Shown here one piece after another: positions 8,447 to 59,796 of a stretch of DNA of 64,000 nucleotides. This stretch comes from Thermodesulfobacteriota bacterium (GTDB lineage: Bacteria; Desulfobacterota; Desulfobulbia; Desulfobulbales; SURF-16): contig JBFMAY010000011.1 of assembly GCA_040755455.1 (NCBI GenBank), positions 15,341 to 79,340 on the forward strand, read 5' to 3'. Numbering within the stretch: the stretch's first letter is position 1; every line of letters begins with the position of its first letter. The notes under the pieces were generated by a model that was not told the DNA's origin, searched no databases, and saw only the letters and a list, made by a program, of their open reading frames with translations. A program made the translations under genes and the position numbers.

Positions 8447-9853
8447 TCAATCAACCAGGGATTTGAGCTGATTGCGCTCCAGTTCAGCATTGAATTTGAC
8501 ATGGACCGAGTAGTCACTGAGCACCAGATCACAGACCTGGACGCCGATGACCAAACCCCGCAGAACGGCATCTGGAAGATTCGTCACCGGAATTATGACT
8601 TTAATATGGCGCCCGAGAAGCAGACGGATGTTCTCTTTGTTGGTGATCCGGACGTTAAATGAAAGCCCCCCCAGGGAGATGTCCGTCATGTCGCCTCTAA
8701 AGGTGCTCAAGACCTTTTCCTTGTCATCAACAATCTGCAGTTGGATTTTGCACTCCTTCCTGTAGCGTTCATGGACCCTGCGGTCCATGCCTTTTTTTTT
8801 CATTTCGGCATAGATATCACTGGAACGGCTGTAATAATCGATAAGCTTGGATTCAATGCCGGGTAGTTTTTGTTCAAGTCGTGCCAGGCTTTCAAGTTTC
8901 AGGACGGAAATGCTGGTCTGCTGCTGGGCGGTGAGTGACACTGTCCAGACCGAGGGGTTGAAAAAATTCTCGCCGACTATCTCACCCTTGCCCATGTTCT
9001 TGAAAAATAATTCTTTTTCGCCGCCCGAGTACGTGACTCTGACACTGCCATGGTTGATAAAAAAGAGCTCGTCGTTTTTCGCGCCCTGGGCGGCAATGAT
9101 TTCTTCAGGTTTGTACGTCCGCTCTCCCATCTCGTGATAGAGGGCGTTGAATTCTTCGGAGGAAAGCACCTGACGGAGATTTGCCCAGATTTCAACATGG
9201 TCCTTGCTGATGGCCCCCTTTTTTTCCTGCTCAATGATATCTCCCGTTTGGATGATCTCCATCAATGCCATGGGATCAATTTCATACATTCTCTCCCTCA
9301 GCCGTTCCGCGTTATGAAAGTCCTTTTTTTGGGCACACGCGACCACCAGTTCAAAAAGCTGTGTTTTGGCGGCTTCGGTGTTGCCTTGCCCGGCCAGTTG
9401 AAAAATCTGCTCTTCCCTGAGGGTGAGTGAATCATTCTTCTGTGCGTCGCCGGAGGACTCAGCCGGTGGAATGACTGACTGCCGTGATTTTGCCAGGCGC
9501 AAAACCTTATCAGCCTCCGCTCTGACTTGTTCGCTGAATTCCTGACTTCCACTCAGGGCCTGCAGGGCGGGGACAATTCGGTCAAGACGGCCCCATTGTT
9601 CGGCCAAGCTTAGTTTTTCCGCAGTTGCGACCAGACAGGATGATGATGCGCCGCTTATGTTCTTGTCGACGCTGCGGGTGGCAAGGGCTATCTGTTCAAG
9701 GAGCTTGTCGGCTATCTGCTCTTTTTGATTGCTAATGAGGCGGCTGACGGTTTGCGCCACGGCGGCGGTAAGGGCAGGATTAAGCAGGACTTGGTGATCA
9801 CCTTTCAGGAGGCGGTTCAGGGCTTCCTGCAGGCTGGATTGTTGTTGGGTCAA
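8447..9853 (-). CDS. cyclic-nucleotide-binding domain plus PilZ domain protein
   Basis: cNMP-binding beta-roll (IIAAQGAKNDELFFINHGSVRVTYSGGEKELFFKNMGKGEIVGE). C-terminal PilZ-type motif (RRVHERY ... DISLGGLSF). The N-terminal part is helical. Confidence 0.75.
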   Translation of the reverse strand: MTQQQSSLQEALNRLLKGDHQVLLNPALTAAVAQTVSRLISNQKEQIADKLLEQIALATRSVDKNISGASSSCLVATAEKLSLAEQWGRLDRIVPALQALSGSQEFSEQVRAEADKVLRLAKSRQSVIPPAESSGDAQKNDSLTLREEQIFQLAGQGNTEAAKTQLFELVVACAQKKDFHNAERLRERMYEIDPMALMEIIQTGDIIEQEKKGAISKDHVEIWANLRQVLSSEEFNALYHEMGERTYKPEEIIAAQGAKNDELFFINHGSVRVTYSGGEKELFFKNMGKGEIVGENFFNPSVWTVSLTAQQQTSISVLKLESLARLEQKLPGIESKLIDYYSRSSDIYAEMKKKGMDRRVHERYRKECKIQLQIVDDKEKVLSTFRGDMTDISLGGLSFNVRITNKENIRLLLGRHIKVIIPVTNLPDAVLRGLVIGVQVCDLVLSDYSVHVKFNAELERNQLKSLVD

Positions 9854-9997
9854 GTGGTACTCCTCAAAAAGGACAGGGCGCCATATTCAGTGATCATCAC
9901 GCTCGTATCGCGAGCTGTCCGGTGCGGCGGCTGACAACTCGACATCCAGACATCAGATGCCTGATCCGGGCGGTCCAGAATTCCCTGTTTTCCCGGA

Positions 9998-10627
9998 TTA
10001 TATAACGGCCACTGCTATTTTGGTAATATTAAGTGAACGGCATGCCAACTTTCCGGCATTCTTTGCTGAAGTGGTCGTGGCATCGTGGGGGGGAGGGGCC
10101 TTTGGTATACAATATGATTGGGAGCAGGTATTTATTTCAATCCTCCTGAGCATTGCCAGTAGTTCAGGAGCCGTGATTTCTGCAATAGGTCGATTGCCGA
10201 CGATTGGAAAGACATCATTTTCAAGCTGCGTTAATATCTTCTCTCCGGTCTTTTCATCCCATTGTGTAGAAAACCTTTGATGCCATTCCAGGGCAACCTC
10301 TTCAAAAGTCTCCTTTTTGGTCTCTGTTGTTGATTTTCCAGGGTCAATTCCCTGAGCAAGTTGCGTCCGCGCTTCATCTCTCTTTTGCCTGGCTGCTAAA
10401 AGTGAAATCTCAGGATATGCGCCAAATGACAGTTTCTTTTCTTTGCCATCAAAGCGATATTTCAGCCGCCATAGTTTCCCCCCGGCCGAGGTGACAAGCA
10501 GGAATAAACCTCCTCCGTCAAAGAGCTTGATTTCCTTCTGCTGAGGCTTGGAATTTCGTATCTGAGTATCAGTTAGGGGCACTGTCCGCTTAGGCATTGG
10601 GGGCTTCTCCGTTTTGGGGGCCTCCAC
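9998..10627 (-). pseudogene. truncated P4-type tyrosine integrase (N-terminal arm-binding/DUF4102 part only)
   Basis: The first about 150 aa match the integrase N-terminus (LTDTQIRNSKPQQKEIKLFDGGGLFLLVTSAGGKLWRLKYRFDGKEKKLSFGAYPEISLLAARQKRDEAR). The catalytic domain is absent and the ORF tail is junk-like. It lies next to the 3' end of the tRNA-Leu. Confidence 0.75.
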
Positions 10628-36796: not shown

Positions 36797-36812
36797 TGGC
36801 ACACAACTGGCT
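36797..36812 (+). promoter_or_regulatory. candidate sigma-54 promoter of glnK-amtB
   Basis: TGGCAC-ACAAC-TGGCT: GG and GC are at the canonical -24/-12 spacing, with one mismatch in the -12 element. It lies 48 nt before the glnK ATG. Confidence 0.5.
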
Positions 36813-36847: not shown

Positions 36848-37198
<351 letters not shown>

Positions 37199-37242: not shown

Positions 37243-38640
37243 ATGAAAAAACCAATCACATCTCTTTTTGTTATTGCCGCGGCGATTTTTATCGTCAGTC
37301 TTGCTGGCAATGTTTTTGCCGCGGATGCCCCTGTTCCCAACAAAGGTGACACCTCCTGGATGATCGTGGCTACCGTCCTAGTTTCGCTGATGACCATTCC
37401 AGGCCTGGCCCTTTTTTATGGCGGCCTGGTGCGGACCAAGAATATGCTTTCGTTATTAATGCAGGTATTTACTGTATTTTCCCTCTGTATTGTCCTGTGG
37501 GTAATATATGGATACAGCCTGGCATTTACCGAGGGTAATGCCTTTTTCGGCGGCTTGAGTAAGATTTTCCTCAAAGGGATAACCGTTGATTCCGTGGCCG
37601 CAACCTTCAGCAAGGGTGTGGTTATCCCGGAACTCATCTATGTCTTCTTCCAGGCAACCTTTGCCGCCATCACTCCGGCCCTGATACTCGGCGCCTTTGC
37701 CGAGCGCATGAAATTCTCCGCTGTGCTGGCCTTCATTGTCCTGTGGTTCACCTTCGCCTACCTGCCGGCAGCCCACATGGTCTGGTATTGGGCCGGCCCC
37801 GACGCCTACACCGATGCTGAGGCGGGCGCCAAGGCGGCAGCCACCGCCGGCTTTCTTTTCCAGAAAGGCGCAATCGATTTTGCCGGTGGAACAGTGGTTC
37901 ATATTAATGCGGCCATTGCGGGTTTGATTGGCGCATTCATGGCAGGTAAACGTGTTGGCTATGGCAAGGAATCCATGGCGCCGCACAGTCTGACCATGAC
38001 CATGATCGGCGCCTCTCTCCTGTGGGTTGGCTGGTTCGGTTTCAACGCTGGTTCCAATCTCGAAGCAACCGGTCTCGCCGCGTTGGCTTTCGGCAATACC
38101 ATGACAGCAACAGCAGCTGCAGCGTTATCATGGCTTTTTCTGGAGTGGGGCATCAAAGGAAAACCGTCAATGCTCGGTGCGGCATCAGGCGCGGTGGCCG
38201 GCCTGGTGGCAATCACTCCTGCATGTGGTTTTGTCGGCATCGGCGGGGCGTTGGTTATTGGTTTACTGGCCGGCGCGCTCTGTCTCTGGGGTGTCAATGG
38301 ACTCAAACGCCTGCTCGGAGCTGACGATGCCCTCGATGTGTTCGGTGTCCACGGCGTCGGCGGCATACTTGGCGCACTGCTGACCGGTGTTTTTGCCAAT
38401 CCTGCCCTTGGTGGCGTTGGTGTCTATGACTATGTGGCAAACAGCGTCGCCGAGTATTCGACCAGCGCCCAGGTTATCAGTCAGCTTTGGGGTATCGGCA
38501 CAACCCTTATCTGGTCCGGTATTGTCTCGGTTATCGCTTACAAGGTGGTGGATCTGGTTATTGGCCTGAGAGTGACTGAAGAAGAGGAACGACAGGGACT
38601 TGACACTTCAAGCCACGGAGAATCAGCATATAAATATTGA
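37243..38640 (+). CDS. amtB: ammonium transporter
   Basis: 465 aa, signal peptide, about 11 TM helices. Motifs DFAGGTVVHINAA and DVFGVHGVGGILGAL. Confidence 0.95.
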   Translation: MKKPITSLFVIAAAIFIVSLAGNVFAADAPVPNKGDTSWMIVATVLVSLMTIPGLALFYGGLVRTKNMLSLLMQVFTVFSLCIVLWVIYGYSLAFTEGNAFFGGLSKIFLKGITVDSVAATFSKGVVIPELIYVFFQATFAAITPALILGAFAERMKFSAVLAFIVLWFTFAYLPAAHMVWYWAGPDAYTDAEAGAKAAATAGFLFQKGAIDFAGGTVVHINAAIAGLIGAFMAGKRVGYGKESMAPHSLTMTMIGASLLWVGWFGFNAGSNLEATGLAALAFGNTMTATAAAALSWLFLEWGIKGKPSMLGAASGAVAGLVAITPACGFVGIGGALVIGLLAGALCLWGVNGLKRLLGADDALDVFGVHGVGGILGALLTGVFANPALGGVGVYDYVANSVAEYSTSAQVISQLWGIGTTLIWSGIVSVIAYKVVDLVIGLRVTEEEERQGLDTSSHGESAYKY

Positions 38641-38903
38641 TACCCTTGAAAATGTCGTCGCCATGGCGGAGAGCAGGAGTTGCAGGACTTTATGGATTTG
38701 GCATTTTGCAAGTCCGACCGGCTCCTGCCAGAAAATTCTCGAAATAACGATAAGCTGTTACTGTTTCAGAATCTCATTTTTCATGGCAAATATTAAGTGT
38801 ATCATGAATTGCAAAACATTATAGTAAATAACCGCTTTACCCCCCCCCCGGATTGTATGCCGGGGCATTTTCAATCAATCTATTTTTCCAAGGAGAAAGA
38901 AAA

Positions 38904-39704
38904 ATGAGAAAGAGCATGTTAACACTCGGCGGCATGGCCCTGCTGGGCATTTTCTGCACCGGCATCGCGGCATCCACCGCCTGGGCCGAAGAGGAAAAAC
39001 CCACCGCGGAACTCAGCGTATCAGCTCTCAGCAAATATGTATGGCGCGGTTACGAGTTGAGCAAGGACAGCCTGGTCCTGCAGCCCTCCATGACCGTTGG
39101 CTATAAAGGCTTCGGCTTTAACCTCTGGGGCAACCTTGACACGGACCAGCATGAATTTTTCGCCACCTCCGACGCGAACTCCACGACCTGGACCGAGACG
39201 GATATGACCCTCTCCTATAACGGCTCCTGCAGCTTCGCCGATTACGGGGTCGGCTATATCTATTACGCCATGGACGGCCTGGATGACAGCCAGGAGGTAT
39301 ACGTCAGCGCCACCCTGAAGACCCTGCTGTCGCCCTCGCTGACAATTTACCGGGACTATGATTTTTACCCGGGCTGGTATATCTCGGCCGGCATTTCCCA
39401 CTCGTTTGCCATCACCGGGGAGCTATCCCTCGACCTGGGCGCCAAGATCGGCTACTACGACATAGATGACGAGGACACCGTGGCCGACCCGGATGATCCC
39501 AACGACGCATACAGCGGCTTGCATGACGGCCAGCTATCCGCCTCCATGACCTTTCCACTGGGCGAGTATTTCTCCATCACCCCGGAGATCTACTACTCAT
39601 TCCCGTTGGACAGCGATGCTGAAGATGTGATCGAAGCCGTCAGCGTCAACGGCAAGGACAGCGACTTTGTCTATGGCGGCGTCACCTTGAGCATGTCCTT
39701 CTAA
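38904..39704 (+). CDS. outer-membrane beta-barrel protein, TorF/Gcw_chp (TIGR02001)-like putative porin
   Basis: Start at MRKSMLTLGGMALLGIFCTGIAASTAWA after GGAGAAAG. It has a SKYVWRGYELS motif, alternating amphipathic strands and a terminal F. This family is recalled as frequently neighbouring amtB. Confidence 0.55.
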   Translation: MRKSMLTLGGMALLGIFCTGIAASTAWAEEEKPTAELSVSALSKYVWRGYELSKDSLVLQPSMTVGYKGFGFNLWGNLDTDQHEFFATSDANSTTWTETDMTLSYNGSCSFADYGVGYIYYAMDGLDDSQEVYVSATLKTLLSPSLTIYRDYDFYPGWYISAGISHSFAITGELSLDLGAKIGYYDIDDEDTVADPDDPNDAYSGLHDGQLSASMTFPLGEYFSITPEIYYSFPLDSDAEDVIEAVSVNGKDSDFVYGGVTLSMSF

Positions 39705-39788: not shown

Positions 39789-40526
39789 ATGACCATGATA
39801 CAACTAGCCGTTTTCCAACATGTGTGGTGGGAAGGCCCCGGGAAATTCCTGCTCGAGGCCGCAGCCAGGGATAATGTACAACTGCACGTTATCGAGGTTT
39901 GGCATCAACCGATTCCCGACCTGTCGCCCTACGACGGCCTTGTCATCCTCGGCGGCGGCCCCAACGTCAACCAGGTGGATGACTATCCCTTCCTGCTCCG
40001 GGAAAAACAGGCCATCCGCCAATGGCTGCTGGGCGACAAGCCATGCCTGGGCATCTGCCTCGGCCACCAGCTGCTGGCCGAAGCCCTGGGCGGCCGCATC
40101 GGCCCCAACTTCTGTCACAGCATCGGCTTTATCGAGGGCCACCTGACAAGCCTTGGCCGCGCCCATCCGGTATTCAAGGGCATTGACACCCATCCGCCCC
40201 TGTTCAAATGGCACGGCCAGGCGGTCCTGCCGCCCGTACCCAGCCATTTGCAGATCCTGGCCACCTCGAAGGAATGCCAGGTTGAGGCCTTTACCGTGCA
40301 GGACAGGTCATATATTGTCGGTGTCCAGTTTGACAACCACGCCGCGGCCCCGGCAGACGTCTCCCAGTGGCTCAACAAAGACGCGGCCTGGCTTGAGTCC
40401 ATCACCGGCAAGGATATCAGCGGAAAACAGATCGCGGCCGATGCGGAAAAACAACAATGGCTGACCGGACGCCATTTTCATCAATTTTTCCGGAATTTCA
40501 TCAGGTTGATGCACAAACCCGCCTGA
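39789..40526 (+). CDS. class-I glutamine amidotransferase-like protein
   Basis: GATase1 nucleophile elbow PCLGICLGHQLLAEALGG and a downstream H/E region (VQFDNHAAA). Confidence 0.8.
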   Translation: MTMIQLAVFQHVWWEGPGKFLLEAAARDNVQLHVIEVWHQPIPDLSPYDGLVILGGGPNVNQVDDYPFLLREKQAIRQWLLGDKPCLGICLGHQLLAEALGGRIGPNFCHSIGFIEGHLTSLGRAHPVFKGIDTHPPLFKWHGQAVLPPVPSHLQILATSKECQVEAFTVQDRSYIVGVQFDNHAAAPADVSQWLNKDAAWLESITGKDISGKQIAADAEKQQWLTGRHFHQFFRNFIRLMHKPA

Positions 40527-40577: not shown

Positions 40578-41888
40578 ATGAGTCCGACAACCCAGAACAA
40601 CATGTTCCTCCTGCTTAACCAGAGCGGGCCCTTTGCCACCCCGGCCGGCCTGCAAACGGGCAGCAGCATTTTTTCCCGGCAGGCCCGCGCCATAGCGTCC
40701 CAGCTGGGCCGGGGAGAACTGTCGACCAAATACCGCGTGATCCGCAACCAGATCTTTGAATTTCTCAATGTCCGCTCCTTTGCCGCCATCCAGACCCTGC
40801 TCCATGACCGGAGCCGCCGTGAGGAAATCGATCACCGCGCCTATATGCTGCTGGGCAACATGTTCGGCATCGAAGGCACGGAACGGGAGATCGTCTCCCG
40901 GGTCAGCAACTACTCACGAACAGCCGACGGCGTGATCCGCTATCTCCGCGGCAAGGTGCTGGCCAATTACAGCTCCCATATCGAGATGACCAACGAAATC
41001 GATGCCCTGAGCAGTCCCGCGGAGCTGCTGCTTATCGTTTTCGACGACCGCTACCACCAGAAGGCCCGTTTTGAAGCCAAACGCAAGCTGATCCTCATGA
41101 ACCTGGCCGGCTCAATCGACCAGAGGGAAAGAGAAACGGGCATTGAGCACAAGTTCGCCCAGTTCCTCGAATTTCTCAACGATCATGTCTGGAGCAAAAA
41201 GGCCAAGATCGGCGAACTGGAAATCGTCTATCTGCTCAGCAGCCACGAAAAACAAAATTTCACCTGCGAACAGCTGCAGATCATCCACCGCCAAGAGGCG
41301 GAGCATATCACCCTGGCGCCGGGGCAGAAGCTCACCCTGCTCAAACGGCGGCGATTTACCGCCAACGGCAGGGAAATCCCCATCTATGTCTCGATCCGCA
41401 AAAAACCGCCGGAGGCCAAGGTGCTGAAGCTGCTGCGCAAGGGGGAGGAAAATCCCGCCGTGGCGGTTGATGACGAATTAGGTCTCATGGGAGTACTGGA
41501 ATCCACCCAGGACATCAAGATATTTCAGAAGCATCTGACCAGCAGCGCCATTGCGGCCAACTCCTTCATGGCGCTGGAGGACATCTCCGACTCGCTCACC
41601 GGCGTGAAACGGGCCAGCAAAAACATGGGCAGCTCCGCCAATACCGCCATGTTCAAGTTTTTTGCCCGGCTCGGCGGCATGCGGGTTGAGTTCATCGTCC
41701 ACACCTACCGGAGCTACCTCAATTATATCTATCAAAGGGATGTCTCCCACGATGAGTATGAGGTCAAACGCATATTTGACACCGGAGTGGCCGAACTGCT
41801 TTTCCCGCAGAGCATCTATCACCTGGACATGAAAAAGATCCGCGAAAAACAGCTCCGCTGGTTCCGCAGGCAGATTGAGGAATTCTGA
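40578..41888 (+). CDS. hypothetical 436-aa protein; helical N-terminal half, and a C-terminal region with a RelA/SpoT-synthetase (small alarmone synthetase)-like motif pattern
   Basis: Long ORF with no overlap conflict. C-terminal blocks: YVSIRKKPPEAKVLKLLRKG, VDDELGLMGVL, MRVEFIVHTYRSYLNYIYQRDVSHDEYEVKR. See the findings. The function is not established. Confidence 0.55.
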   Translation: MSPTTQNNMFLLLNQSGPFATPAGLQTGSSIFSRQARAIASQLGRGELSTKYRVIRNQIFEFLNVRSFAAIQTLLHDRSRREEIDHRAYMLLGNMFGIEGTEREIVSRVSNYSRTADGVIRYLRGKVLANYSSHIEMTNEIDALSSPAELLLIVFDDRYHQKARFEAKRKLILMNLAGSIDQRERETGIEHKFAQFLEFLNDHVWSKKAKIGELEIVYLLSSHEKQNFTCEQLQIIHRQEAEHITLAPGQKLTLLKRRRFTANGREIPIYVSIRKKPPEAKVLKLLRKGEENPAVAVDDELGLMGVLESTQDIKIFQKHLTSSAIAANSFMALEDISDSLTGVKRASKNMGSSANTAMFKFFARLGGMRVEFIVHTYRSYLNYIYQRDVSHDEYEVKRIFDTGVAELLFPQSIYHLDMKKIREKQLRWFRRQIEEF

Positions 41889-41889
41889 C

Positions 41890-42270
41890 ATGAAACACGC
41901 ACCGCATACCCTGCCGCCGGCCGTGATTAATCTCTTCTTTGCCATCGGGCTCATGTCCGCCCTGTCCTTCCGGGCGCTCATGGCCATCAAGGATCTGCAG
42001 CCGCAACTGTTCCGCCCGGTCTGGTATCTGGGCATCATCGGCTACATCCTCTTTTTCGGCTTCCGTTACTCCATCACCGAAAAACGCAAAAAGGCCATCA
42101 GAGAATTCAACCTGGTCGAAAAGCTGCAGAACGGCGAAGAATTGACCTCCAACGACCGCCAGGTGGTGACCTACATCCTGTCGTCCCTGCAGAAATCGCG
42201 GGAGAACCTCAATTACCTCTTCATCTTCGTCACCTCCGCCATTGCCATTTTCCTGGATCTGCTTCTCTGA
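41890..42270 (+). CDS. small 3-TM membrane protein (hypothetical)
   Basis: The ATG lies 1 nt after the upstream stop, with a GAGG SD. Helices: VINLFFAIGLMSALSF, VWYLGIIGYILFFGF, LFIFVTSAIAIFLDLLL. A charged loop lies between helices 2 and 3. Confidence 0.5.
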   Translation: MKHAPHTLPPAVINLFFAIGLMSALSFRALMAIKDLQPQLFRPVWYLGIIGYILFFGFRYSITEKRKKAIREFNLVEKLQNGEELTSNDRQVVTYILSSLQKSRENLNYLFIFVTSAIAIFLDLLL

Positions 42271-42282
42271 GAGGAGGTGAAC

Positions 42283-43389
42283 ATGAAAGGACTGATCGAC
42301 AGCACCCTGCGGGAAGGCGAGCAGGCTCCGGGTGTGTTTTTTCCCCTGGCGGCCAAGATCAAAATCGCACGCCTCCTGGCCAGGGTCGGCATCGAGGAGA
42401 TCGAGCTCGGCATTGCCACCCCCTACAACCGGGAACTGCCGGAACTGATGCGCTTGAGCCGGCGCAGGATCACCACCAGCCGCCTGGCCCTCTGGTGCCG
42501 GTGCGTTACCGCTGACATCGACTTTGCCGCCGCATTGGCCCCGGACGTTCTTTCCCTGTCGATTCCCGCCTCGGATCTGCATATCTACGAAAAACTCGGC
42601 CGCAACCGCAGCTGGATCAAAGATACTTTGGCCCAGGCCATCCGCTACAGCCTGGCAAAAGGCATCCGCGTTGTGTCCGTGGGACTGGAAGATGCCACCC
42701 GGGCCGATGAGGATTTTCTGGCGCAGCTGATGCAAACCGCGGCGCAGGCAGGGGCCGCCAGGGTGCGGCTGGCTGATACGGTGGGGATCATGAGCCCTGC
42801 GGCAATCGCCGGGCTCATCGGTCGGATTGCCAAAATCACCCCACTTGAGATCGGCATGCACGCCCATAACGATTTCGGCATGGCCACGGCCAATGGCATT
42901 GCCGCCCTTGAGGCCGGGGCCGACTGGGCGGACGCCACCGTTCTCGGTATCGGCGAACGGGCCGGCAACAGCCGCCTGGAGGAGATGGCAGGCTACCTTG
43001 CCCTGCGCGGCGACAGGCGTCCCTACCAAACCGAACATCTGCGCCTGTTATGCCAAAGCGTGGCCCATGCCGCCAAAAGACCGATTGCCGGCTCGCATCC
43101 CCTGGTGGGCGAGGCAATCTTCACCTGCGAAACCGGTCTCCACCTGCAGGGACTGACAAGAAATCCGGCAACCTATGAGCCGTATGAACCGGAAAGGGTC
43201 GGCGGGCAACGGCGGCTGCTGCTGGGCAGCAAATCAGGCAAAAGGGCCATCCAGGACCGGCTGCAGACCCTTGGCTGCCCCCTGCCGGCAGAGAGACTTG
43301 AACAGGTCCTCAACCGGGTCCGCCACCAGGCCGGCAGCAAAAGACGGCCCCTGAACGACGAGGAAATACGAGCGATTATCAGCGGATGA
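42283..43389 (+). CDS. nifV: homocitrate synthase
   Basis: HMGL-like aldolase motifs: DSTLREGEQAPGV, RLADTVG, HAHNDFGMATAN. Length about 368 aa and nif context. GAGGAGG SD. Confidence 0.85.
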   Translation: MKGLIDSTLREGEQAPGVFFPLAAKIKIARLLARVGIEEIELGIATPYNRELPELMRLSRRRITTSRLALWCRCVTADIDFAAALAPDVLSLSIPASDLHIYEKLGRNRSWIKDTLAQAIRYSLAKGIRVVSVGLEDATRADEDFLAQLMQTAAQAGAARVRLADTVGIMSPAAIAGLIGRIAKITPLEIGMHAHNDFGMATANGIAALEAGADWADATVLGIGERAGNSRLEEMAGYLALRGDRRPYQTEHLRLLCQSVAHAAKRPIAGSHPLVGEAIFTCETGLHLQGLTRNPATYEPYEPERVGGQRRLLLGSKSGKRAIQDRLQTLGCPLPAERLEQVLNRVRHQAGSKRRPLNDEEIRAIISG

Positions 43390-43489: not shown

Positions 43490-45091
43490 TTACCACTGCT
43501 CCGGCCTTGCCAGGCCGTACTTCTTGATCTTGTAGCCGATCTGCCGCTGGGTCAGGCCCAACTCCCGGGCGGCCCGGGACTGCACCCAGCCGTGCCGTCT
43601 GAGCGACGCCTCGATTTCCACCCGCTCCATGTCCTTCAGCACCCTTGCCCTGCCCGCATTGCCCGCTGCCGCGGACACCACATCCGCGACAGGGGCCTGC
43701 ACCGCAACAGCCCTCCCCTGCGGCCCGGCAAACATCTTGTCGGGCAGATCCGATATCTGCAGCCAGCCGCTGTCCGTGAGAATAACCAACCGCTCCACCA
43801 GGTTCTGTAATTCCCGGACATTACCGGGCCAGTCATAGGCCGTCAAAAAATCAAGAAACTCCTTGGTCATTTTCACATTTTTTTCATTACGCTTATTGCT
43901 TGACCGGAGGAAATGATCCAGCAGCAACGGGACATCTTCGCTTCGCTCCCGCAGGGGCGGCAGAGTAAGGGGCACCACGTTCAGCCGGTAATAGAGATCA
44001 TTGCGGAACTTGCCCTCGACCACGGCGTTCTCGAGACTGACATTGGTTGCCGCGATGATGCGCACATCCACACTCAGGGTGGTGGTGCCGCCGAGCCGCT
44101 CAAACTGGCTTTCCTGCAGCACCCGCAACAGTTTGGCCTGCAGGGCCAGCGGCAGCTCGCCGATCTCGTCAAGAAACAGAGTCCCGCCATTGGCCAGTTC
44201 AAATCGCCCGGGCTTGGCGCTCACCGCGCCGGTGAAGGCCCCTTTTTCATGGCCCAGCAGCTCGCTTTCCAGCAGGTTTTCCGGCAAGGCGGCACAGTTC
44301 ACCTTGATAAATGTTTTGTCCTTGCGAGTGCTGGCCTGATGAATGGCCCGGGCCACCAGTTCCTTGCCGGTGCCCGACTCACCCAGCAGCAGCACGGTGG
44401 CCCGGCTGGGCGCCACCTTCTCGATGCTCCAGAAAATGCCCTGCATGGGCTTGCTTTGCCCGATCATGTAATGGCGATGATAACGGCTGTGCAACTCCGC
44501 CTTCAGGCTCTTGTTCTCCTCCACCAGCACCGCCTGGTTGCGGCTGATGGCCCGGTGCAGACTGAGAAACTGGGCGATCAGGGTGGACAGCACGGAGAGA
44601 AAACGGATGTCCTCCTCAAACGAAACATCCAGGCCAAACAGCCGGTCCACGCTGAGCACGCCCACCGGCTTGCTGGACAGCATCACCGGCACGCCGATAA
44701 AGGAAATACGCTCCTTGCTGATCTTGGACCTGGCCTTTGTTCTATTGAGAAAGAGGGGCTCACTCTGGATGTCCGGCACGACAAAGGGTGAACAGGTGCG
44801 GAAAATCTGCCCGGATATTCCCTCGTTCAGACCATATACCCCGCGCTGCTCCTCCTGCACGGTCAAGCCATAGGAGGCGCGGATGGTCAACCTTTCGCCT
44901 GATTTATCGAGCAGAACCAGGGTGGCCCGCTCCATGCGCAGGATGTCATGCACGATACGCAATATTTTGCTTAACGTCGTATCCAGATGGACCGCCGAAC
45001 CGATGAGCTGGCAGATCTCGCTTAAGGCCTGCAGCTCAAGGGCTTCGATCGTCGGTTTCCTGGAAGATGGTAACATGTTTGCTCCTGTCAT
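43490..45091 (-). CDS. nifA: nif-specific sigma-54 activator NifA (GAF-AAA+-HTH)
   Basis: N-terminal GAF ([27 protein letters not shown]). AAA+ domain with [14 protein letters not shown] and [11 protein letters not shown]-terminal [25 protein letters not shown]. Divergent from nifH. Confidence 0.85.
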
Positions 45092-45483: not shown

Positions 45484-45499
45484 TGGCACACCTCTTGCC
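45484..45499 (+). promoter_or_regulatory. sigma-54 (-24/-12) promoter of the nifH operon
   Basis: TGGCAC-ACCTC-TTGCC matches TGGCAC-N5-TTGC. It lies about 180 nt upstream of the nifH ATG. Confidence 0.75.
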
Positions 45500-50553: not shown

Positions 50554-50646
50554 TGACAGGCGGCGGGGGAATCGTTGCTCCCCTGCCGGCTTGCGCGAAA
50601 ACTTATCGGCGAGCACACTGTGATAGCTCATTGCAATTCAGGCGCC

Positions 50647-50716
50647 GTAGCTGCTGGCCTTGCCCGCGATCACAGGCATCTTGTCATGGAATCGCGCGGG
50701 CATGGCCCGCTTCTAC
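50647..50716. repeat. degenerate second copy of the GTAG-type REP palindrome
   Basis: GTAGCTGCTGGCCTTGCCCGCGAT...ATCGCGCGGGCATGGCCCGCTTCTAC, compared with the copy at 24099-24170 (GTAGGAGCGGGCCATGCCCGCGAC...ATCGCGGGCATGGCCCGCTCCTGC). Confidence 0.6.
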
Positions 50717-50772
50717 TGTGCGCCTTATGGCGAAAAAGACTTTCGACTAACCCATCAAACACAAGGCATCCC

Positions 50773-51933
50773 ATGAACGCCATATCCCCATGCACAACAG
50801 TCCGGGCCTGCGCCGGTTCACAGTCATGCCGGCAGTCAGGAAAAGCACTTGAGCTGCCGGTGGCGGCCCGCGTCAATGCCAGGCTGCGCTCTACCTCCAC
50901 GGCCAGGACCCCCCAGGCCATGCTGCCGCAGGGGGCGGCGAACCGGCTTGACGACTTGCTCAGCCGGGGCGCAGACATCGGCGAGGTACAGCTCAGCGGC
51001 CCTGGTGATCCCCTGGCAGATATCCGTCCCACCCTGGAGACCTGCCGCCTGGTGCGGGACAGACATGCCGACCTGCGGCTGGGTATCACCACCCTTGGCA
51101 TCAACGCTGAGGCCTATGCCGATACCCTGGCCGAACACGGGGTATGCACGGTCACCCTGCTGGTGGAGGCGGTTGACCCAGAGCTGGTGAAAAACCTCTA
51201 TGCCTGGATCCGACCCGGCACCAGGACCATTCCCCTGAGTCAAGCGGCCCCCATGCTGGTGGAGGCACAGAAGCGGGCCATTACCGCCCTGCAACGGGCC
51301 GGTCTTACGATCACGGTCAGGACCACGGTTTTCCCAGGCATCAACGACAGCCACGTGGCGGCAATCGCCGAACGGATGGCCGAGCTGGGAGTGGGGAAAA
51401 TGGTCCTGGCACCCTGCCCGGATGAGCCGGACGCACCCAATGCGCCGGACAGCGCCCGCATGGCTGCCCTGGCCGGGCTGGCAGGCCGCTATCTTGCCAC
51501 GGAAATCATTGCCCCGGCCGCGGCCGACCTGGGCGCCACCCGAGCTGCGGCAGGAGGCGCGGCGGCTGGCATGCTGCCGCAGCCGAGCCCAACGCGGCCC
51601 AACGTGGCGGTGGTCAGCGCCACCGGCATGGATATCGATCTGCACCTCGGCCAGGCCGGCCGGGCCCTGATATACGGGCCCAGGGAAGACGGCCTGCCCT
51701 GCCTGCTGACCACCCGGCCCCTGCCCCCTCCGGGAAGCGGCAGCGTCAGGTGGGAGAAGCTGGCGGATTCGTTCACCGACTGCTTTGCCCTGCTCACCTC
51801 AGGCGCCGGTGACAATCCACGAAAGGTTTTAGCCAGCCACGGCATCACCGTGCTCGTTACCGACGGCAATGTGGAGGGCACGGTGGACGCGCTGTACGGC
51901 GGCGGCAAAAACGGAAAACAATGCCGCAGATAG
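50773..51933 (+). CDS. NifB-like paralogue lacking the radical-SAM and auxiliary-cluster cysteines (radical-SAM-barrel-like plus NifX-like domains)
   Basis: Collinear with NifB (58525..59796): LSGPGDPLADIRPTLETCRLVRD, VEAVDPELVKNLYAWIR, FPGINDSHVAAIAERMAELG, NVAVVSATGMDIDLHLGQA. However, LPVAARVNARLRSTSTA replaces LPVAPKCNIKCNYCNRK. Start chosen at MNAISPC (AAGG 8 nt upstream). Confidence 0.7.
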   Translation: MNAISPCTTVRACAGSQSCRQSGKALELPVAARVNARLRSTSTARTPQAMLPQGAANRLDDLLSRGADIGEVQLSGPGDPLADIRPTLETCRLVRDRHADLRLGITTLGINAEAYADTLAEHGVCTVTLLVEAVDPELVKNLYAWIRPGTRTIPLSQAAPMLVEAQKRAITALQRAGLTITVRTTVFPGINDSHVAAIAERMAELGVGKMVLAPCPDEPDAPNAPDSARMAALAGLAGRYLATEIIAPAAADLGATRAAAGGAAAGMLPQPSPTRPNVAVVSATGMDIDLHLGQAGRALIYGPREDGLPCLLTTRPLPPPGSGSVRWEKLADSFTDCFALLTSGAGDNPRKVLASHGITVLVTDGNVEGTVDALYGGGKNGKQCRR

Positions 51934-53335: not shown

Positions 53336-55090
53336 TCAGCATTTATCACCAGTCATCTTCAAAAGTTTGCCGATAAAATGATGAACATCCTCATGAATTT
53401 CATCGGGGCTCATGCTCATAGCAACCTCATCACGAATGAGCTGCAAAGATGGTGAGCCAGTTCGAAGTTGGTGGAAAAGTGAGTTGTCATCTTCGAACAG
53501 AATTCGCTTCCCATCGACCACCATGAATATATTTGCCGTTACGTTTCGCCACGTTTTTCCAGCGGGCAACGTCAAATTCTGATCGGAAAAAAAATTATTG
53601 ATGGTGTGTAACACTGGATACGCAAAAAGATTGTCTTCTTTGCTTTTCATAAGCTGGAGAGCTGCTCGCTTCCAGGCATCAGGAACCAACAAGTAGTTTT
53701 CAATATTTTTTCGCTTCCACTCGGTTAATGTAAGGTTATCAGTAGGGGGATGAAATGCATTGGCGCTATTGTCGTAGTCGAAGAGCATTAATCGTGAAAC
53801 CTCAGGGATGATCTGCTGCAATGCTGCGTAATGTTCATCCGCCCTGTTTTTCATGTTCTCTTTGCCGCCACCCCCCATCGTCTTGAAACAGACTTTGTCA
53901 ATCGCTACCTGCGCACAGCATTGAGCTGCCCAAGCACGAAGAATACGTTCATCGCTTTCCCCTTCCACATAGAGAATGTAGGGCGATGCCATCAGCCTTG
54001 CTATTTCTTCGTTGGTAACTTCCGACATTGCTCTCAACACTTCCGGTGTTGACTGAATACGCCTTGGCACTTGACTCAGCAGCGAGACTATTTGACTGGC
54101 ATCAACACCTCGCGCAAACTCCTCTGCATGTGTAGCAATCAGAAACTGAGTGTTTCTCTCAAAAGATTTTCTTTTGAAAAAATCGAGAATCTCACGTTGC
54201 AAGTTAACATGCAGATGAGCATCTGGTTCATCAAGGAGTATGGTGGTGGGTTGATAACCATACAGAAAGGCCAACAGAGTCAGAGTCTGGTGGAACCCGC
54301 TCCCCCCGGAAATAATGTCATAGTTTTTGCCATTTTGTCGATATTCAACGGTGATATAGACATCCCCTGCAGAGTCATATTTTGGCTCACGAATTTTTAC
54401 AGAGAACCAGCGTTCGGTTATAGCAGCCAGTTCCTGCCAGTCATTAGGCGATGGCCGTTTGACGATACGACCATCCGATTCTCTTTCGGGTGGGGGACAC
54501 ACCCGTAACAGTAAATTGCGAAGTACGCTTCCGGGTTGACCCTTCCCTACCTGCTGGCGAATCGGAGAATCATCTAGTTTTTTCTCGGTTGGCTCCAGGC
54601 CAGAAAAAGGGGGTACGTAGGCAATTTTGGGCAGGATCCCCTGCTTTTCGCATTCACGGAATTTTGCCCAACCATCGCTGGGAATTGCATAAATTGTTTG
54701 CGGCGAGTGGTAGCGCAACTCTACGCCAAAAGAATCTGTCGCTCCAGTCTCCATCAGCCATTCCACCCGAATGCCAATCAGAATGTATTCCTGCTTTTTT
54801 TTGCCGTTGACCATAGGCCAATGCCGATCAGTTCTATCTTTCCAAAGCAGGTTAAATTCAGGAACCGGCAAAGCAGTAAAGTTTGGCAGGACCACCTGTA
54901 CACCTTTTGTACCGCTGCGTTTCAATCTATGAAACTCATCAACACAGTACTGCCAGATTGCCAACGCCTGCAACACTGTGCTTTTGCCGCTGTTATTCCT
55001 CCCAATCAGAAGATCAAACTGGAAAAAGTCGTAGACCTGTTCACTTACACTTTTGAAATTACGTAGCGCTAATTTTGTAATCATAGACAA
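53336..55090 (-). CDS. ABC-type ATPase fused to a Toprim/DUF4435-like nuclease domain (OLD-family / fused PARIS AriA-AriB-like defence candidate)
   Basis: 584 aa. N-terminus: LRNFKSV, P-loop GRNNSGKSTVLQAL, Walker B/D-loop ILLDEPDAHLH, and ATHAEEF. C-terminus: ILYVEGESDERIL ... GGGGKENM ... LMLFDYDNS (DxD) ... RKNIENYLLVP. It is visibly AT-richer than its neighbours and is flanked by noncoding DNA. Confidence 0.7.
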   Translation of the reverse strand: MSMITKLALRNFKSVSEQVYDFFQFDLLIGRNNSGKSTVLQALAIWQYCVDEFHRLKRSGTKGVQVVLPNFTALPVPEFNLLWKDRTDRHWPMVNGKKKQEYILIGIRVEWLMETGATDSFGVELRYHSPQTIYAIPSDGWAKFRECEKQGILPKIAYVPPFSGLEPTEKKLDDSPIRQQVGKGQPGSVLRNLLLRVCPPPERESDGRIVKRPSPNDWQELAAITERWFSVKIREPKYDSAGDVYITVEYRQNGKNYDIISGGSGFHQTLTLLAFLYGYQPTTILLDEPDAHLHVNLQREILDFFKRKSFERNTQFLIATHAEEFARGVDASQIVSLLSQVPRRIQSTPEVLRAMSEVTNEEIARLMASPYILYVEGESDERILRAWAAQCCAQVAIDKVCFKTMGGGGKENMKNRADEHYAALQQIIPEVSRLMLFDYDNSANAFHPPTDNLTLTEWKRKNIENYLLVPDAWKRAALQLMKSKEDNLFAYPVLHTINNFFSDQNLTLPAGKTWRNVTANIFMVVDGKRILFEDDNSLFHQLRTGSPSLQLIRDEVAMSMSPDEIHEDVHHFIGKLLKMTGDKC

Positions 55091-55591: not shown

Positions 55592-55607
55592 TGGCACACC
55601 CGTTGCT
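55592..55607 (+). promoter_or_regulatory. sigma-54 (-24/-12) promoter of the nifE-nifN-nifB operon
   Basis: TGGCAC-ACCCG-TTGCT is a perfect match to TGGCAC-N5-TTGCW. It lies 75 nt before the nifE ATG. Confidence 0.8.
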
Positions 55608-58524: not shown

Positions 58525-59796
58525 ATGAAAAAAGACTACCGTCATCATCCCTGCTTCAACGCCGAGGTCAAAGGCCAGTTCGGCCGGGTGCATCTGCCGG
58601 TTGCCCCGAAGTGCAACATCAAATGCAATTACTGCAACCGGAAATATGACTGCGTCAACGAGTCGCGGCCCGGCGTCACCAGCACCATCCTCACCCCGCA
58701 GCAGGCCCTCACCTATATGGACAGGGTGCTGGAGCGCGAGCCCCGCATAACCGTGGCAGGCATCGCCGGTCCCGGCGACCCGTTTGCCAATGCCGAGGAG
58801 ACCCTGGAAACCATGCGGCTGATCCGGGAAAAATACCCGCACATGATCCTCTGCCTGGCGAGCAACGGCATGAACCTGCCCCCCCACGTGGAGGCCCTGG
58901 CCGAGCTTGACGTCTCCCACGTCACGGTGACGGTGAACGGCGTTGATCCGGAAGTGATCAAAAACGTCTACGGCTGGGTGCGGGACGGCAACGTGGTGTA
59001 CCGCGGCATCCAGGCGGCGGAACTGATCCTGGCACGGCAGCTGCACGCCATTGCCAAGCTCAAGGAGCATGATATCACGGTCAAGATCAACACCATCGCC
59101 ATTCCGGGCATCAACGATCATCATATCGAGGAGGTGGCACAAAAAATGGCGGAGCTGGGGGCCGATCTCTTTAACTGCATGGCCATGTTCCCAAATGTGG
59201 ACACCCCATTTGCCGATATCCCGGAACCGAGCAAGCAGCAGATGGCCACGCTGCGCAACAAGGCGGAGAAATACCTGCCCCAGATGCGGCACTGCACCCG
59301 CTGCCGGGCAGATGCCGTGGGCCTGCTGGGCCACGACAGGAGCGAGGAGATGCACGGCTGCCTCTCAGCCTGTGCCTCCCTGCCCGTCATGCCCAAACAG
59401 GACAGGCCCTTTGTGGCTGTGGCCACCATGGAAGGGGTGCTGGTCAACCAGCATCTGGGCGAGGCCACCCGTTTTCAGATCTGGGAGCAAAAAGAGGACG
59501 GCACCTTTAACATGGTGGAAGAGCGGCCGGCCTCCCAGCCCGGCGGCGGACCGCAGCGCTGGCACAACCTGGCCCGGGCCTTGCGTGACTGCCGCGCCGT
59601 CCTGGTTAATGATCTCGGCGATTCACCCAAGGAGATTCTGGCCAAAATGGGGGTCAAACCGGTGACCATGAGCGGCTTTATCGATATGGGCCTGGAGGCG
59701 GTATACAGCGGCAAGGATCTCAGCAAGCTCAAGGGCCGCCAGCACAAATGCACCTCAAAGGGGGCATGCTCGGGCGGCGGCAACGGCTGCGGCTGA
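58525..59796 (+). CDS. nifB: radical-SAM FeMo-cofactor biosynthesis protein NifB (with a C-terminal NifX-like domain)
   Basis: HHPCFNAEVKGQFGRVHLPVAPKCNIKCNYCNRKYDC (CX3CX2C), the HCTRCRADAVG auxiliary-cluster motif, and a C-terminal NifX-like region FVAVATMEGVLVNQHLGEA. Confidence 0.95.
   Translation: MKKDYRHHPCFNAEVKGQFGRVHLPVAPKCNIKCNYCNRKYDCVNESRPGVTSTILTPQQALTYMDRVLEREPRITVAGIAGPGDPFANAEETLETMRLIREKYPHMILCLASNGMNLPPHVEALAELDVSHVTVTVNGVDPEVIKNVYGWVRDGNVVYRGIQAAELILARQLHAIAKLKEHDITVKINTIAIPGINDHHIEEVAQKMAELGADLFNCMAMFPNVDTPFADIPEPSKQQMATLRNKAEKYLPQMRHCTRCRADAVGLLGHDRSEEMHGCLSACASLPVMPKQDRPFVAVATMEGVLVNQHLGEATRFQIWEQKEDGTFNMVEERPASQPGGGPQRWHNLARALRDCRAVLVNDLGDSPKEILAKMGVKPVTMSGFIDMGLEAVYSGKDLSKLKGRQHKCTSKGACSGGGNGCG

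Follow-up and report, generated by a model that had tools for sequence, protein, structure and literature searches.

X436, an unannotated protein family often encoded near nifV in Desulfobulbales, resembles the synthetase domains of RelA/SpoT homologues

Introduction

What does a conserved protein without any annotation do beside the homocitrate synthase gene of a nitrogen fixation region? The question is posed by a stretch of 64,000 nucleotides from a Thermodesulfobacteriota bacterium of the order Desulfobulbales (GenBank contig JBFMAY010000011.1, positions 15,341 to 79,340), hereafter the window, in which a 436-residue protein, termed X436, is encoded just upstream of a small open reading frame (ORF), TM126, and a nifV-like gene. 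A reading of the window made without database searches (the sequence-only reading) had drawn attention to three peptide blocks of X436 that recall the synthetase motifs of RelA/SpoT homologues (RSH). RSH enzymes are central producers of bacterial alarmones, and their synthetase domains take the beta-gamma pyrophosphate from ATP and attach it to a hydroxyl group of the acceptor. The analysis described here makes it probable, if only just, that X436 is an unannotated, deeply divergent RSH-clade pyrophosphokinase which gives a nitrogen-linked, alarmone-type signal or a related product. Its fold and probably its chemistry would be known ones, while the N-terminal domain, the acceptor site and the genomic role are probably new.

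Results

X436 is a real and strongly conserved protein

X436 is a real, strongly conserved and unannotated protein. Searches of Pfam-A, NCBIfam and PADLOC gave no match with E<=1, and the sole match among PDB sequences (2gju, E 0.17) was judged to be noise. A word-indexed search returned 1298 homologues; all named ones are called 'hypothetical protein' and their named sources are Desulfobulbales or Thermodesulfobacteriota metagenome-assembled genomes. The 36 sequences of the close alignment share 63-92% identity with a mean column identity of 74%, and the ORF is considered real because roughly 1300 homologues exist and those aligned are so similar. An exhaustive profile search extended the family to 287 clusters at 50% identity, and a scan of GTDB species genomes detected a relative in at least 413 of them. 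The 80 loci examined for gene context are nearly all of Desulfobulbales type. Gammaproteobacterial outliers of the family occur in Thiothrix (56% identity) and Psychromonas.

The predicted fold points to RSH synthetases

The features of X436 discussed in this and the following sections are listed here with window coordinates.

40578-41888, plus strand: ORF of X436, 436 residues, unannotated family, with a family-specific helical N-terminal domain followed by an RSH-type synthetase-like domain
40578-41189, plus strand: N-terminal all-helical domain, residues 1-204, from the secondary structure of the model
41190-41888, plus strand: RSH synthetase-like alpha/beta domain, residues 205-436, from Foldseek against PDB, BFVD and hhalign
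41397-41441, plus strand: putative ATP-phosphate-binding motif R274-K-K276-PPEA-KVL-K284-LL-R287-K288, matching RSH RxKxxxSxxxKxxRK with Ser changed to Ala
41472-41489, plus strand: D299-E-L-G302-L-M304, corresponding to RSH DxxGxR, with the Asp kept and the second adenine-sandwich Arg changed to Met
41592-41651, plus strand: loop of residues 339-358 in place of the RSH guanine-binding G-loop, with clade-conserved G351-S352-S353 and the family-wide K360 just after it
41679-41705, plus strand: strand M368-R-V-E371-F-I-V-H375-T, corresponding to RSH vEiQiRT, with the Glu kept, Gln changed to Ile (I373) and Arg to His

The sequence-only reading had suggested that an AlphaFold model be compared with RelA/SpoT structures, and the outcome of this comparison was in its favor. 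The AlphaFold2 model of X436 (mean predicted local distance difference test score, pLDDT, 84.5; predicted template modelling score, pTM, 0.85) is composed of an all-helical region (residues 34-204), an alpha/beta region (215-376) and C-terminal helices (377-435). When the model was searched against the PDB with Foldseek, ranks 1-31 were all occupied by RSH enzymes, including Staphylococcus aureus RelP/SAS2, ribosome-bound RelA, the N-terminal regions of Rel from several species, SpoT, CapRel and an exported small alarmone synthetase (SAS), and FaRel2 followed at rank 36. E values started at 2e-3, probabilities reached 1.00 and whole-chain alignments with long RSH enzymes spanned 320-400 columns. 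Generic Pol-beta-type nucleotidyltransferases (NTases) were found only beneath this RSH block, at E>0.3. In the viral structure library BFVD, the top match and most of the named top matches were likewise RelA/SpoT proteins. The order of secondary structure elements in residues 265-376 is presumably the same as in SAS synthetase domains, and the domain contains an additional N-terminal beta-hairpin region (residues 215-262) carrying the invariant H223 and the near-invariant R258. X436 ends at residue 436, 60 residues beyond the catalytic strand.

Profile comparisons bridge X436 and known RSH families

The three peptide blocks comprise residues 270-289 YVSIRKKPPEAKVLKLLRKG, 297-316 VDDELGLMGVLESTQDIKIF and 366-398 GGMRVEFIVHTYRSYLNYIYQRDVSHDEYEVKR. 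With a family profile, PDB matches at about 5e-3 were obtained to RelP, SAS2 and YwaC, covering the segment from RxK to DxxG, and sub-threshold matches to the RelA_SpoT profile PF04607 were obtained for 17 of 52 distant X436 relatives (best 3.8e-5, 22 bits); in the relatives that were individually inspected these lie at residues ~256-378, the equivalent region. The X436 family was further aligned by hhalign with the N-terminal regions of eight long RSH sequences, namely E. coli RelA and SpoT and six Rel/SpoT genes from plasmid or chromid records. This yielded a score of 33.2 (P=0.0019, 140 columns) and paired X436 residues 266-419 with Rel residues 237-407. The motif resemblance exceeds chance, because none of 21 reversed or column-shuffled controls scored above 22.1. 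A template of only two RelA/SpoT sequences gave P 0.04, which is too weak. The profile-profile alignment reproduced the motif register that had been proposed by the sequence-only reading, and together with the fold searches, the PF04607 matches and the PDB profile matches it backs the proposed RelA/SpoT (SAS-like) resemblance.

Profile hidden Markov models are also the basis of the superfamily-wide RSH censuses (PMC3153485, PMC7229694), whose searched passages mention no Desulfobulbales-specific or nif-linked subfamily. Such models would probably miss the X436 clade, since X436 scores nothing against PF04607. A literature search for the X436 gene in Desulfobulbales nif clusters retrieved nothing relevant.

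The catalytic and ATP-phosphate ligands are kept, the acceptor site appears changed

Conservation was assessed in an alignment of 52 diverse family members that are 22-56% identical to X436. Invariant residues are H223, R274, K276, K284, D299 and P410, and R287, K288, G302, K360, E371, R398 and Y414 are conserved to at least 90%. These positions can be read against the characterized enzymes. In RelSeq, D264 and E323 (D107 and E174 of RelP) form the catalytic, Mg-coordinating pair, R241 and R269 sandwich the adenine ring, and Y308 in the beta5/beta6 loop stacks on the guanine, while K80 and K88 of the RelP motif hold the terminal phosphate of ATP (PMC7983052). The X436 equivalents are D299 and E371 for the catalytic pair, which hhalign also aligns with the catalytic Asp and Glu of Rel, R274 for the stacking R241, the lysines of the motif for the phosphate-holding K80 and K88 of RelP, and M304 at the position of R269.

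The substitutions noted by the sequence-only reading (Met for the Arg of GxR, Ile for Gln and His for Arg) are correct for the clade of the window, and the wider family shows how they vary. The middle position of the RxKxxxSxxxKxxRK motif is Ser or Ala across the family. Distant members read DxxGxR or DxxGxK, and E[LF]Q[LI]HT in the catalytic strand, where His almost always replaces Arg. A further change concerns the loop of residues 339-358, which hhalign sets (as GSSxxT) opposite the 'NgYqSlHT' stretch of Rel. Residues 343-351 have pLDDT values below 50, and neither the close nor the distant alignment contains a conserved aromatic residue in this loop; a stacking Tyr is absent. Taken together, the pattern suggests that the donor site and the chemistry have been retained and that acceptor recognition has been rebuilt. 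Of the two words 'divergent' and 'degenerate' applied to X436 by the sequence-only reading, the second is the less likely, because the whole family shows little or no variation in its catalytic Asp and Glu and in its ATP-phosphate ligands.

The N-terminal domain and nucleotide enzymes fused to relatives

The N-terminal domain has its own family-wide conserved residues (A116, L150, E166, A167, R169 and K170, in a 'RFEAKRKL' stretch). Modelled alone (residues 1-210, pLDDT 69), it had no significant PDB match; the best E value was 1.2, reached with helical proteins such as phycocyanin. The stretch 'DDRYH...EAKRKLxLMNLAG' had raised the suspicion of a degenerate HD hydrolase domain like that of RelA. 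This idea found no support: no confident N-terminal hhalign alignment was obtained, and no HD structures were matched. Pfam gave no HD, TGS or ACT match in X436 at E<=1.

In a rare subfamily of about ten proteins (706-748 residues), the X436 module is fused to two further domains: one resembles purine phosphoribosyltransferases, with GpT/XGPRT structures matched at 1.6e-6, and the other is a NUDIX domain, matched down to 2e-11. Members of this subfamily are unannotated and comprise the metagenomic proteins P0190, P0206, P0188, P0224 and P0240 (706-742 aa) and the proteins of loci L093 and L095. Because both fused domains act on nucleotides, the substrate or product of the X436 module would be a purine nucleotide.

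X436 recurs among nitrogen genes in several gene orders

The wider window is a nif region. The ORF layout, spacings and peptide blocks given by the sequence-only reading were all reproduced exactly, and the genes around X436 are as follows.

36860-37198, plus strand: glnK, nitrogen-status sensor, from translation
37243-38640, plus strand: amtB, ammonium channel, from translation
38853-39704, plus strand: porin-like outer-membrane protein, weak Gcw_chp match (PF09694, 6.8e-3 here and 1e-5 in locus L020)
39789-40526, plus strand: GATase, stand-alone class-I glutamine amidotransferase (PF00117, 2.8e-17), often the upstream neighbor of X436
41890-42270, plus strand: TM126, ORF of 126 residues with three hydrophobic segments
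42283-43389, plus strand: nifV-like homocitrate synthase (HMGL-like, 9.6e-65)
43490-45091, minus strand: nifA-like sigma-54 enhancer-binding activator, divergent from nifH, with GAF, AAA+ (GESGTGKE) and helix-turn-helix regions read from the translation
from 45590: nifH ORF, probable start 45674
from 46664: PII gene (nifI-like)
from 47261: nifD
from 49168: nifK
50575-51933, plus strand: nifB-like gene, first copy, radical SAM and Nitro_FeMo-Co domains
from 55682: nifE
from 57101: nifN
58525-59796, plus strand: nifB, second copy, radical SAM and Nitro_FeMo-Co domains

The gaps along porin, GATase, X436, TM126 and nifV measure, in order, 84, 51, 1 and 6-12 nt. The X436 stop codon TGA (41886-41888) is followed by one base and the ATG of TM126 at 41890. 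The nifV-like ORF has a GAGGAGG ribosome-binding site and an ATG at 42283, 12 nt past the TM126 stop, with GTG 42277 as an alternative start; the best NCBIfam model for its product is TIGR02660, at 370 bits under the cut-off of 462.9.

Gene context was compared in the best 80 species loci of those with a relative, using the window proteins and the mod genes of locus L020. Genes of the nif, mod or glnK-amtB groups lie within 8 kb of X436 in 53 of these loci, and several further ones carry only the GATase, the porin-like gene or both. Four arrangements can be distinguished. The window type (architecture A) reads glnK-amtB-porin-GATase-X436-(TM126)-nifV, a divergent nifA, then nifH-nifI-nifDK. 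Architecture B reads nifEN-nifB-porin-modE-modABC-nifV-X436, architecture C has GATase-X436 followed by an inverted nifV-modCBA-nifBNE block, and architecture D is free of nitrogen genes, with X436 for example next to purH, thiamine or ribosomal genes or near a phosphoribosyltransferase gene and trmE.

Unbiased clustering of the flanking ORFs in the 80 loci gave the frequencies of neighbors within 4 kb. The commonest is nifV, present in 36 loci; it shares the strand of X436 and lies downstream in 16 of them and upstream in 15, and it is inverted in 5. GATase follows with 32 loci, always upstream on the same strand and at gaps of 3-100 nt where inspected, then the porin-like gene (30 loci; 39 overall, in both main architectures) and amtB (26 loci). 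The pair glnK-amtB stands upstream of GATase-X436 in 23-24 loci and nifA beside nifV in 14; other recurrent clusters (glnK, modABC, nifA and antisense ORFs) are rarer than the four leading neighbors. An adjacency that survives inversion and reordering is a classic signature of functional coupling, and X436 and nifV would be coupled in this sense. A link of X436 with nifV, glnK-amtB and the nif regulon had been proposed from the window alone, and the 53 loci with such genes, in their several gene orders, support it.

Some loci show features of their own. In architecture B, the next same-strand gene after X436 is often a conserved 226-aa ORF that matches nothing in Pfam (10 of the 80 loci; 9294-9974 in L020); it takes the place held by TM126 and nifV in the window. 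The porin-like gene lies between amtB or nifB and GATase or the mod genes, as an outer-membrane component travelling with nitrogen genes. In Thiothrix subterranea (JAVFKN010000003.1, locus L096), the homologue at 9001-10317, which falls in a cluster with a representative 56% identical to X436, is ~6 kb from modE-modABC, with SLFN_AlbA_2, NucS_C-like and ADH genes in between; this case suggests that the X436 gene moved horizontally between sulfur bacteria. In Psychromonas aquimarina (AUAM01000012.1, locus L094, 8513-13212), the gene directly after the homologue encodes a response regulator that includes an HD/HD_5 phosphohydrolase domain, and a gene for a hybrid histidine kinase is also present there; the three may make up a signalling unit whose hydrolase acts on the product.

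TM126 is confined to the closest relatives

The sequence-only reading had regarded TM126, with its three membrane segments, as a functional partner of X436 and had offered a toxin of the toxic small alarmone synthetase (toxSAS) type as an alternative. Hydrophobic stretches of TM126, read by eye from the translation, cover approximately residues 10-31, 43-59 and 106-126, and its family matches in Pfam, NCBIfam and PADLOC are all sub-threshold. The gene was found in 12 of the 80 loci, which are the 12 closest ones. In three others (L013, L015 and L076), nifV begins 19-45 nt after X436, leaving no room for TM126. This distribution rules out TM126 as a conserved partner or antitoxin, and no other conserved small neighbor emerged from the clustering of flanking ORFs in the 80 loci. 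TM126 is taken to be a clade-specific insertion between X436 and nifV that stands outside the mechanism proposed below.

That X436 is a toxSAS-type toxin (alarmone- or tRNA-pyrophosphorylating), with TM126 as its antitoxin or membrane partner, is extremely improbable. The idea draws on the RSH synthetase fold, on CapRel and FaRel2 among the structural matches and on the TM126 start codon 1 nt past the X436 stop. It fails on the absence of a conserved two-gene module and of any PADLOC match for X436 (TM126 gave only a weak, sub-threshold one). Moreover, the 63-92% identity of aligned Desulfobulbales-type homologues and their core-genome or nif contexts are unlike the patchy occurrence of mobile toxin-antitoxin loci.

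A candidate promoter lies upstream of glnK

One element upstream of the same-strand run deserves mention.

36797-36812, plus strand: sigma-54-like -24/-12 site TGGCACACAACTGGCT, pattern with one mismatch, 48 nt upstream of glnK

Similar sites precede nifH (at 45484) and nifE (at 55592), and no other sigma-54-like site is well placed. Taken over the window as a whole, the relaxed sigma-54 pattern was not enriched over shuffled sequences, so the evidence for these sites is positional only. The site upstream of glnK may be a candidate promoter for the run glnK-amtB-porin-GATase-X436-TM126-nifV. No convincing sigma-54 or sigma-70 promoter or terminator was found flanking X436, and none between the porin-like gene, GATase, X436, TM126 and nifV. 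It is plausible that X436 is co-transcribed with its neighbors under nitrogen control.

Other features of the window

The GATase keeps the nucleophile motif GICLGHQ, and its translation reads VQFDNHAAA where class-I amidotransferases usually read QFHPE. The Glu of the triad thus seems to be missing, and the protein may bind or sense glutamine instead of acting as a standard amidotransferase. Two separate nifB-like ORFs occur in the one nif region, and the domain scores of the copy at 50575-51933 are much weaker. Between this gene and nifE lies a 584-aa ATPase of the AAA_15/AAA_21 type (53339-55090, minus strand) with strong PADLOC matches to defence ATPases (NsnB 4e-24, AriA 2e-19, also GajA/Old/PtuA-like). 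It looks like a gene of defence type that has been inserted into the nif cluster.

Discussion

Proposed function of X436 and competing explanations

From the observed fold similarity, residue conservation and gene linkage, a model can be drawn up for catalysis, the identities of donor and acceptor, co-transcription and physiological role. Residues 205-436 of X436 would form an RSH catalytic domain in which the ATP-phosphate ligands and the Mg-binding catalytic pair D299/E371 are kept; of the two arginines that sandwich the adenine, one appears to have been lost, and so does the loop that stacks on guanine. Judged by its sequence, the protein should be active, presumably with ATP as the donor and with a purine nucleotide as the acceptor that would be bound otherwise than GDP or GTP in Rel and RelP. 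In Desulfobulbales, its gene would have been recruited among genes for nitrogen status and nitrogenase maturation, with which co-transcription is predicted. Since the gene is embedded in this setting, X436 would make a nucleotide signal of the alarmone type, or a pyrophosphorylated compound related to it, under nitrogen limitation or during N2 fixation, and this output would tie nitrogen limitation to growth control. The upstream GATase could, speculatively, be its glutamine-sensing or glutamine-using partner.

Several results weigh against assigning X436 to active RSH pyrophosphokinases with a nitrogen-linked product. No Foldseek match reached E<=1e-3, the TM-scores, normalized to the SAS targets, were modest (0.40-0.45) with high root-mean-square deviations, the hhalign probability of the X436-RSH alignment was only 14.5%, and X436 itself has no PF04607 match even at E<=1 (gathering score 27 bits). 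Three RSH-typical residues are altered (R269 to Met, Q325 to Ile and R327 to His), and the absence of the guanine-stacking Tyr makes a loss of activity or a non-nucleotide acceptor conceivable. No sigma-54 site lies directly upstream of X436. About one quarter of the loci are found in housekeeping contexts with no nitrogen genes, and distant relatives (the NUDIX fusions and Psychromonas) have no nitrogen linkage, Thiothrix with its nearby mod genes being the exception; for these reasons a nitrogen role of X436 may be clade-specific.

The same altered residues would also fit a pseudo-enzyme in which the RSH fold binds ATP or an alarmone without catalysis and serves as a nucleotide-sensing subunit for GATase, NifV or GlnK. 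The change of the adenine-sandwich Arg to Met, of EIQIRT to EFIVHT and the missing G-loop Tyr would then mark lost activity, the N-terminal helical domain, which is large and conserved, could serve for interactions, and the tight, recurrent adjacency to enzymes would be in line with such a role. This explanation is unlikely. Relatives of 22-56% identity retain both catalytic residues, Asp and Glu, and each of the five ATP-phosphate ligands, as expected if purifying selection acts on chemistry and not just on binding; packing on adenine is still possible with Met, and distant members restore Arg or Lys and Gln. Chemistry of another kind is considered by a proposal in which X436 is an enzyme of nitrogenase-cofactor biosynthesis or maturation that pyrophosphorylates or activates a non-nucleotide compound (homocitrate-related or molybdenum-handling) together with NifV and ModABC. 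Such a role would account for nifV as the top neighbor in three arrangements, for modABC often lying alongside, for the wholly remodelled acceptor-binding loop and for the Thiothrix homologue within ~6 kb of modE-modABC. It is nevertheless distinctly improbable, as members of the family are also found at a distance from all nif and mod genes, the fusion partners in relatives are nucleotide enzymes (purine phosphoribosyltransferase and NUDIX), and no RSH enzyme is known to use an acceptor that is neither a nucleotide nor RNA.

RSH domains belong to the Pol-beta-like nucleotidyltransferase superfold, which leaves room for a protein-modifying NTase of the nitrogen cascade, analogous to GlnD or GlnE and directed at GlnK/PII or another regulator. 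Generic NTases do appear lower in the fold list, and glnK-amtB is near X436 in 24 of the 80 loci, as are nifI PII genes. We nonetheless rate this role as very unlikely: X436 matches no Pfam or NCBIfam model at E<=1, the GlnD, GlnE and NTP_transf families included, its best structural matches and its RxKxxxSxxxKxxRK motif are specific to RSH pyrophosphokinases, and we know of no RSH enzyme that modifies proteins. The divergent RSH pyrophosphokinase remains the preferred explanation. A bolder form of it sees the family as an RSH-fold branch with a rebuilt acceptor site whose product is something other than (p)ppGpp or (pp)pApp, namely a new second messenger or a pyrophosphorylated macromolecule or metabolite. 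It would control or report nitrogen status and nitrogenase maturation in Desulfobulbales, with the GATase providing glutamine input. This form is offered tentatively, as a possibility that we do not expect to hold.

Relation to known RSH systems

The best structural and PDB profile matches of X436 are the small alarmone synthetases RelP and RelQ (S. aureus RelP/SAS2, 6ewz and 6fgx; Bacillus subtilis YwaC, 6fgk), with which it has in common the RxKxxx[S/A]xxxKxxRK helix and the catalytic Asp and Glu. Unlike these proteins, X436 possesses a ~200-residue N-terminal helical domain and the extra beta-hairpin region, lacks the loop with the guanine-stacking Tyr, reads DxxGxM and EFIVHT, goes undetected by PF04607 and is set among nif and nitrogen-sensing genes. 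With the long RSH enzymes Rel, RelA and SpoT (1vj7, 5xnx, 6s2t, 7qpr), its synthetase domain aligns in register, although sequence identity is only ~10-12%, and, like RelA, it carries a non-hydrolase helical region ahead of that domain; in contrast to them, the model of its N-terminal domain is not HD-like and TGS and ACT regulatory domains are absent. The RSH synthetase fold is also shared with toxSAS proteins (CapRel, 7ztb; FaRel2, 8pu4; PhRel), two of which, CapRel and FaRel2, were among the matches. The acceptors of toxSAS enzymes (Jimmy et al. 2020, PMC7229694) differ from GDP/GTP and are ATP/ADP or the tRNA 3' end. X436 departs from this group in having neither a conserved two-gene module nor a match in the defence library, and in its strong, vertical-type conservation and core-genome or nif context.

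A link between nitrogen supply and alarmone synthesis has precedents. In E. coli, cells starved of nitrogen are driven to make (p)ppGpp by way of NtrC-relA (PMC4066584), and in Caulobacter the route is PTS-Ntr/SpoT (PMC4848567). Both provide a conceptual model of how nitrogen or glutamine limitation raises alarmone synthesis by RSH enzymes. These circuits regulate canonical long RSH enzymes, whereas X436 would represent a dedicated, divergent RSH-like gene inside the nitrogen regulon, beside a GATase gene and nifV. Its occurrence in nif and glnK-amtB neighborhoods makes X436 a testable candidate for linking nitrogen status or nitrogenase assembly to nucleotide signalling in anaerobic, sulfur-cycling diazotrophs, and the family may widen the range of chemistries to be sought among RSH-fold enzymes.

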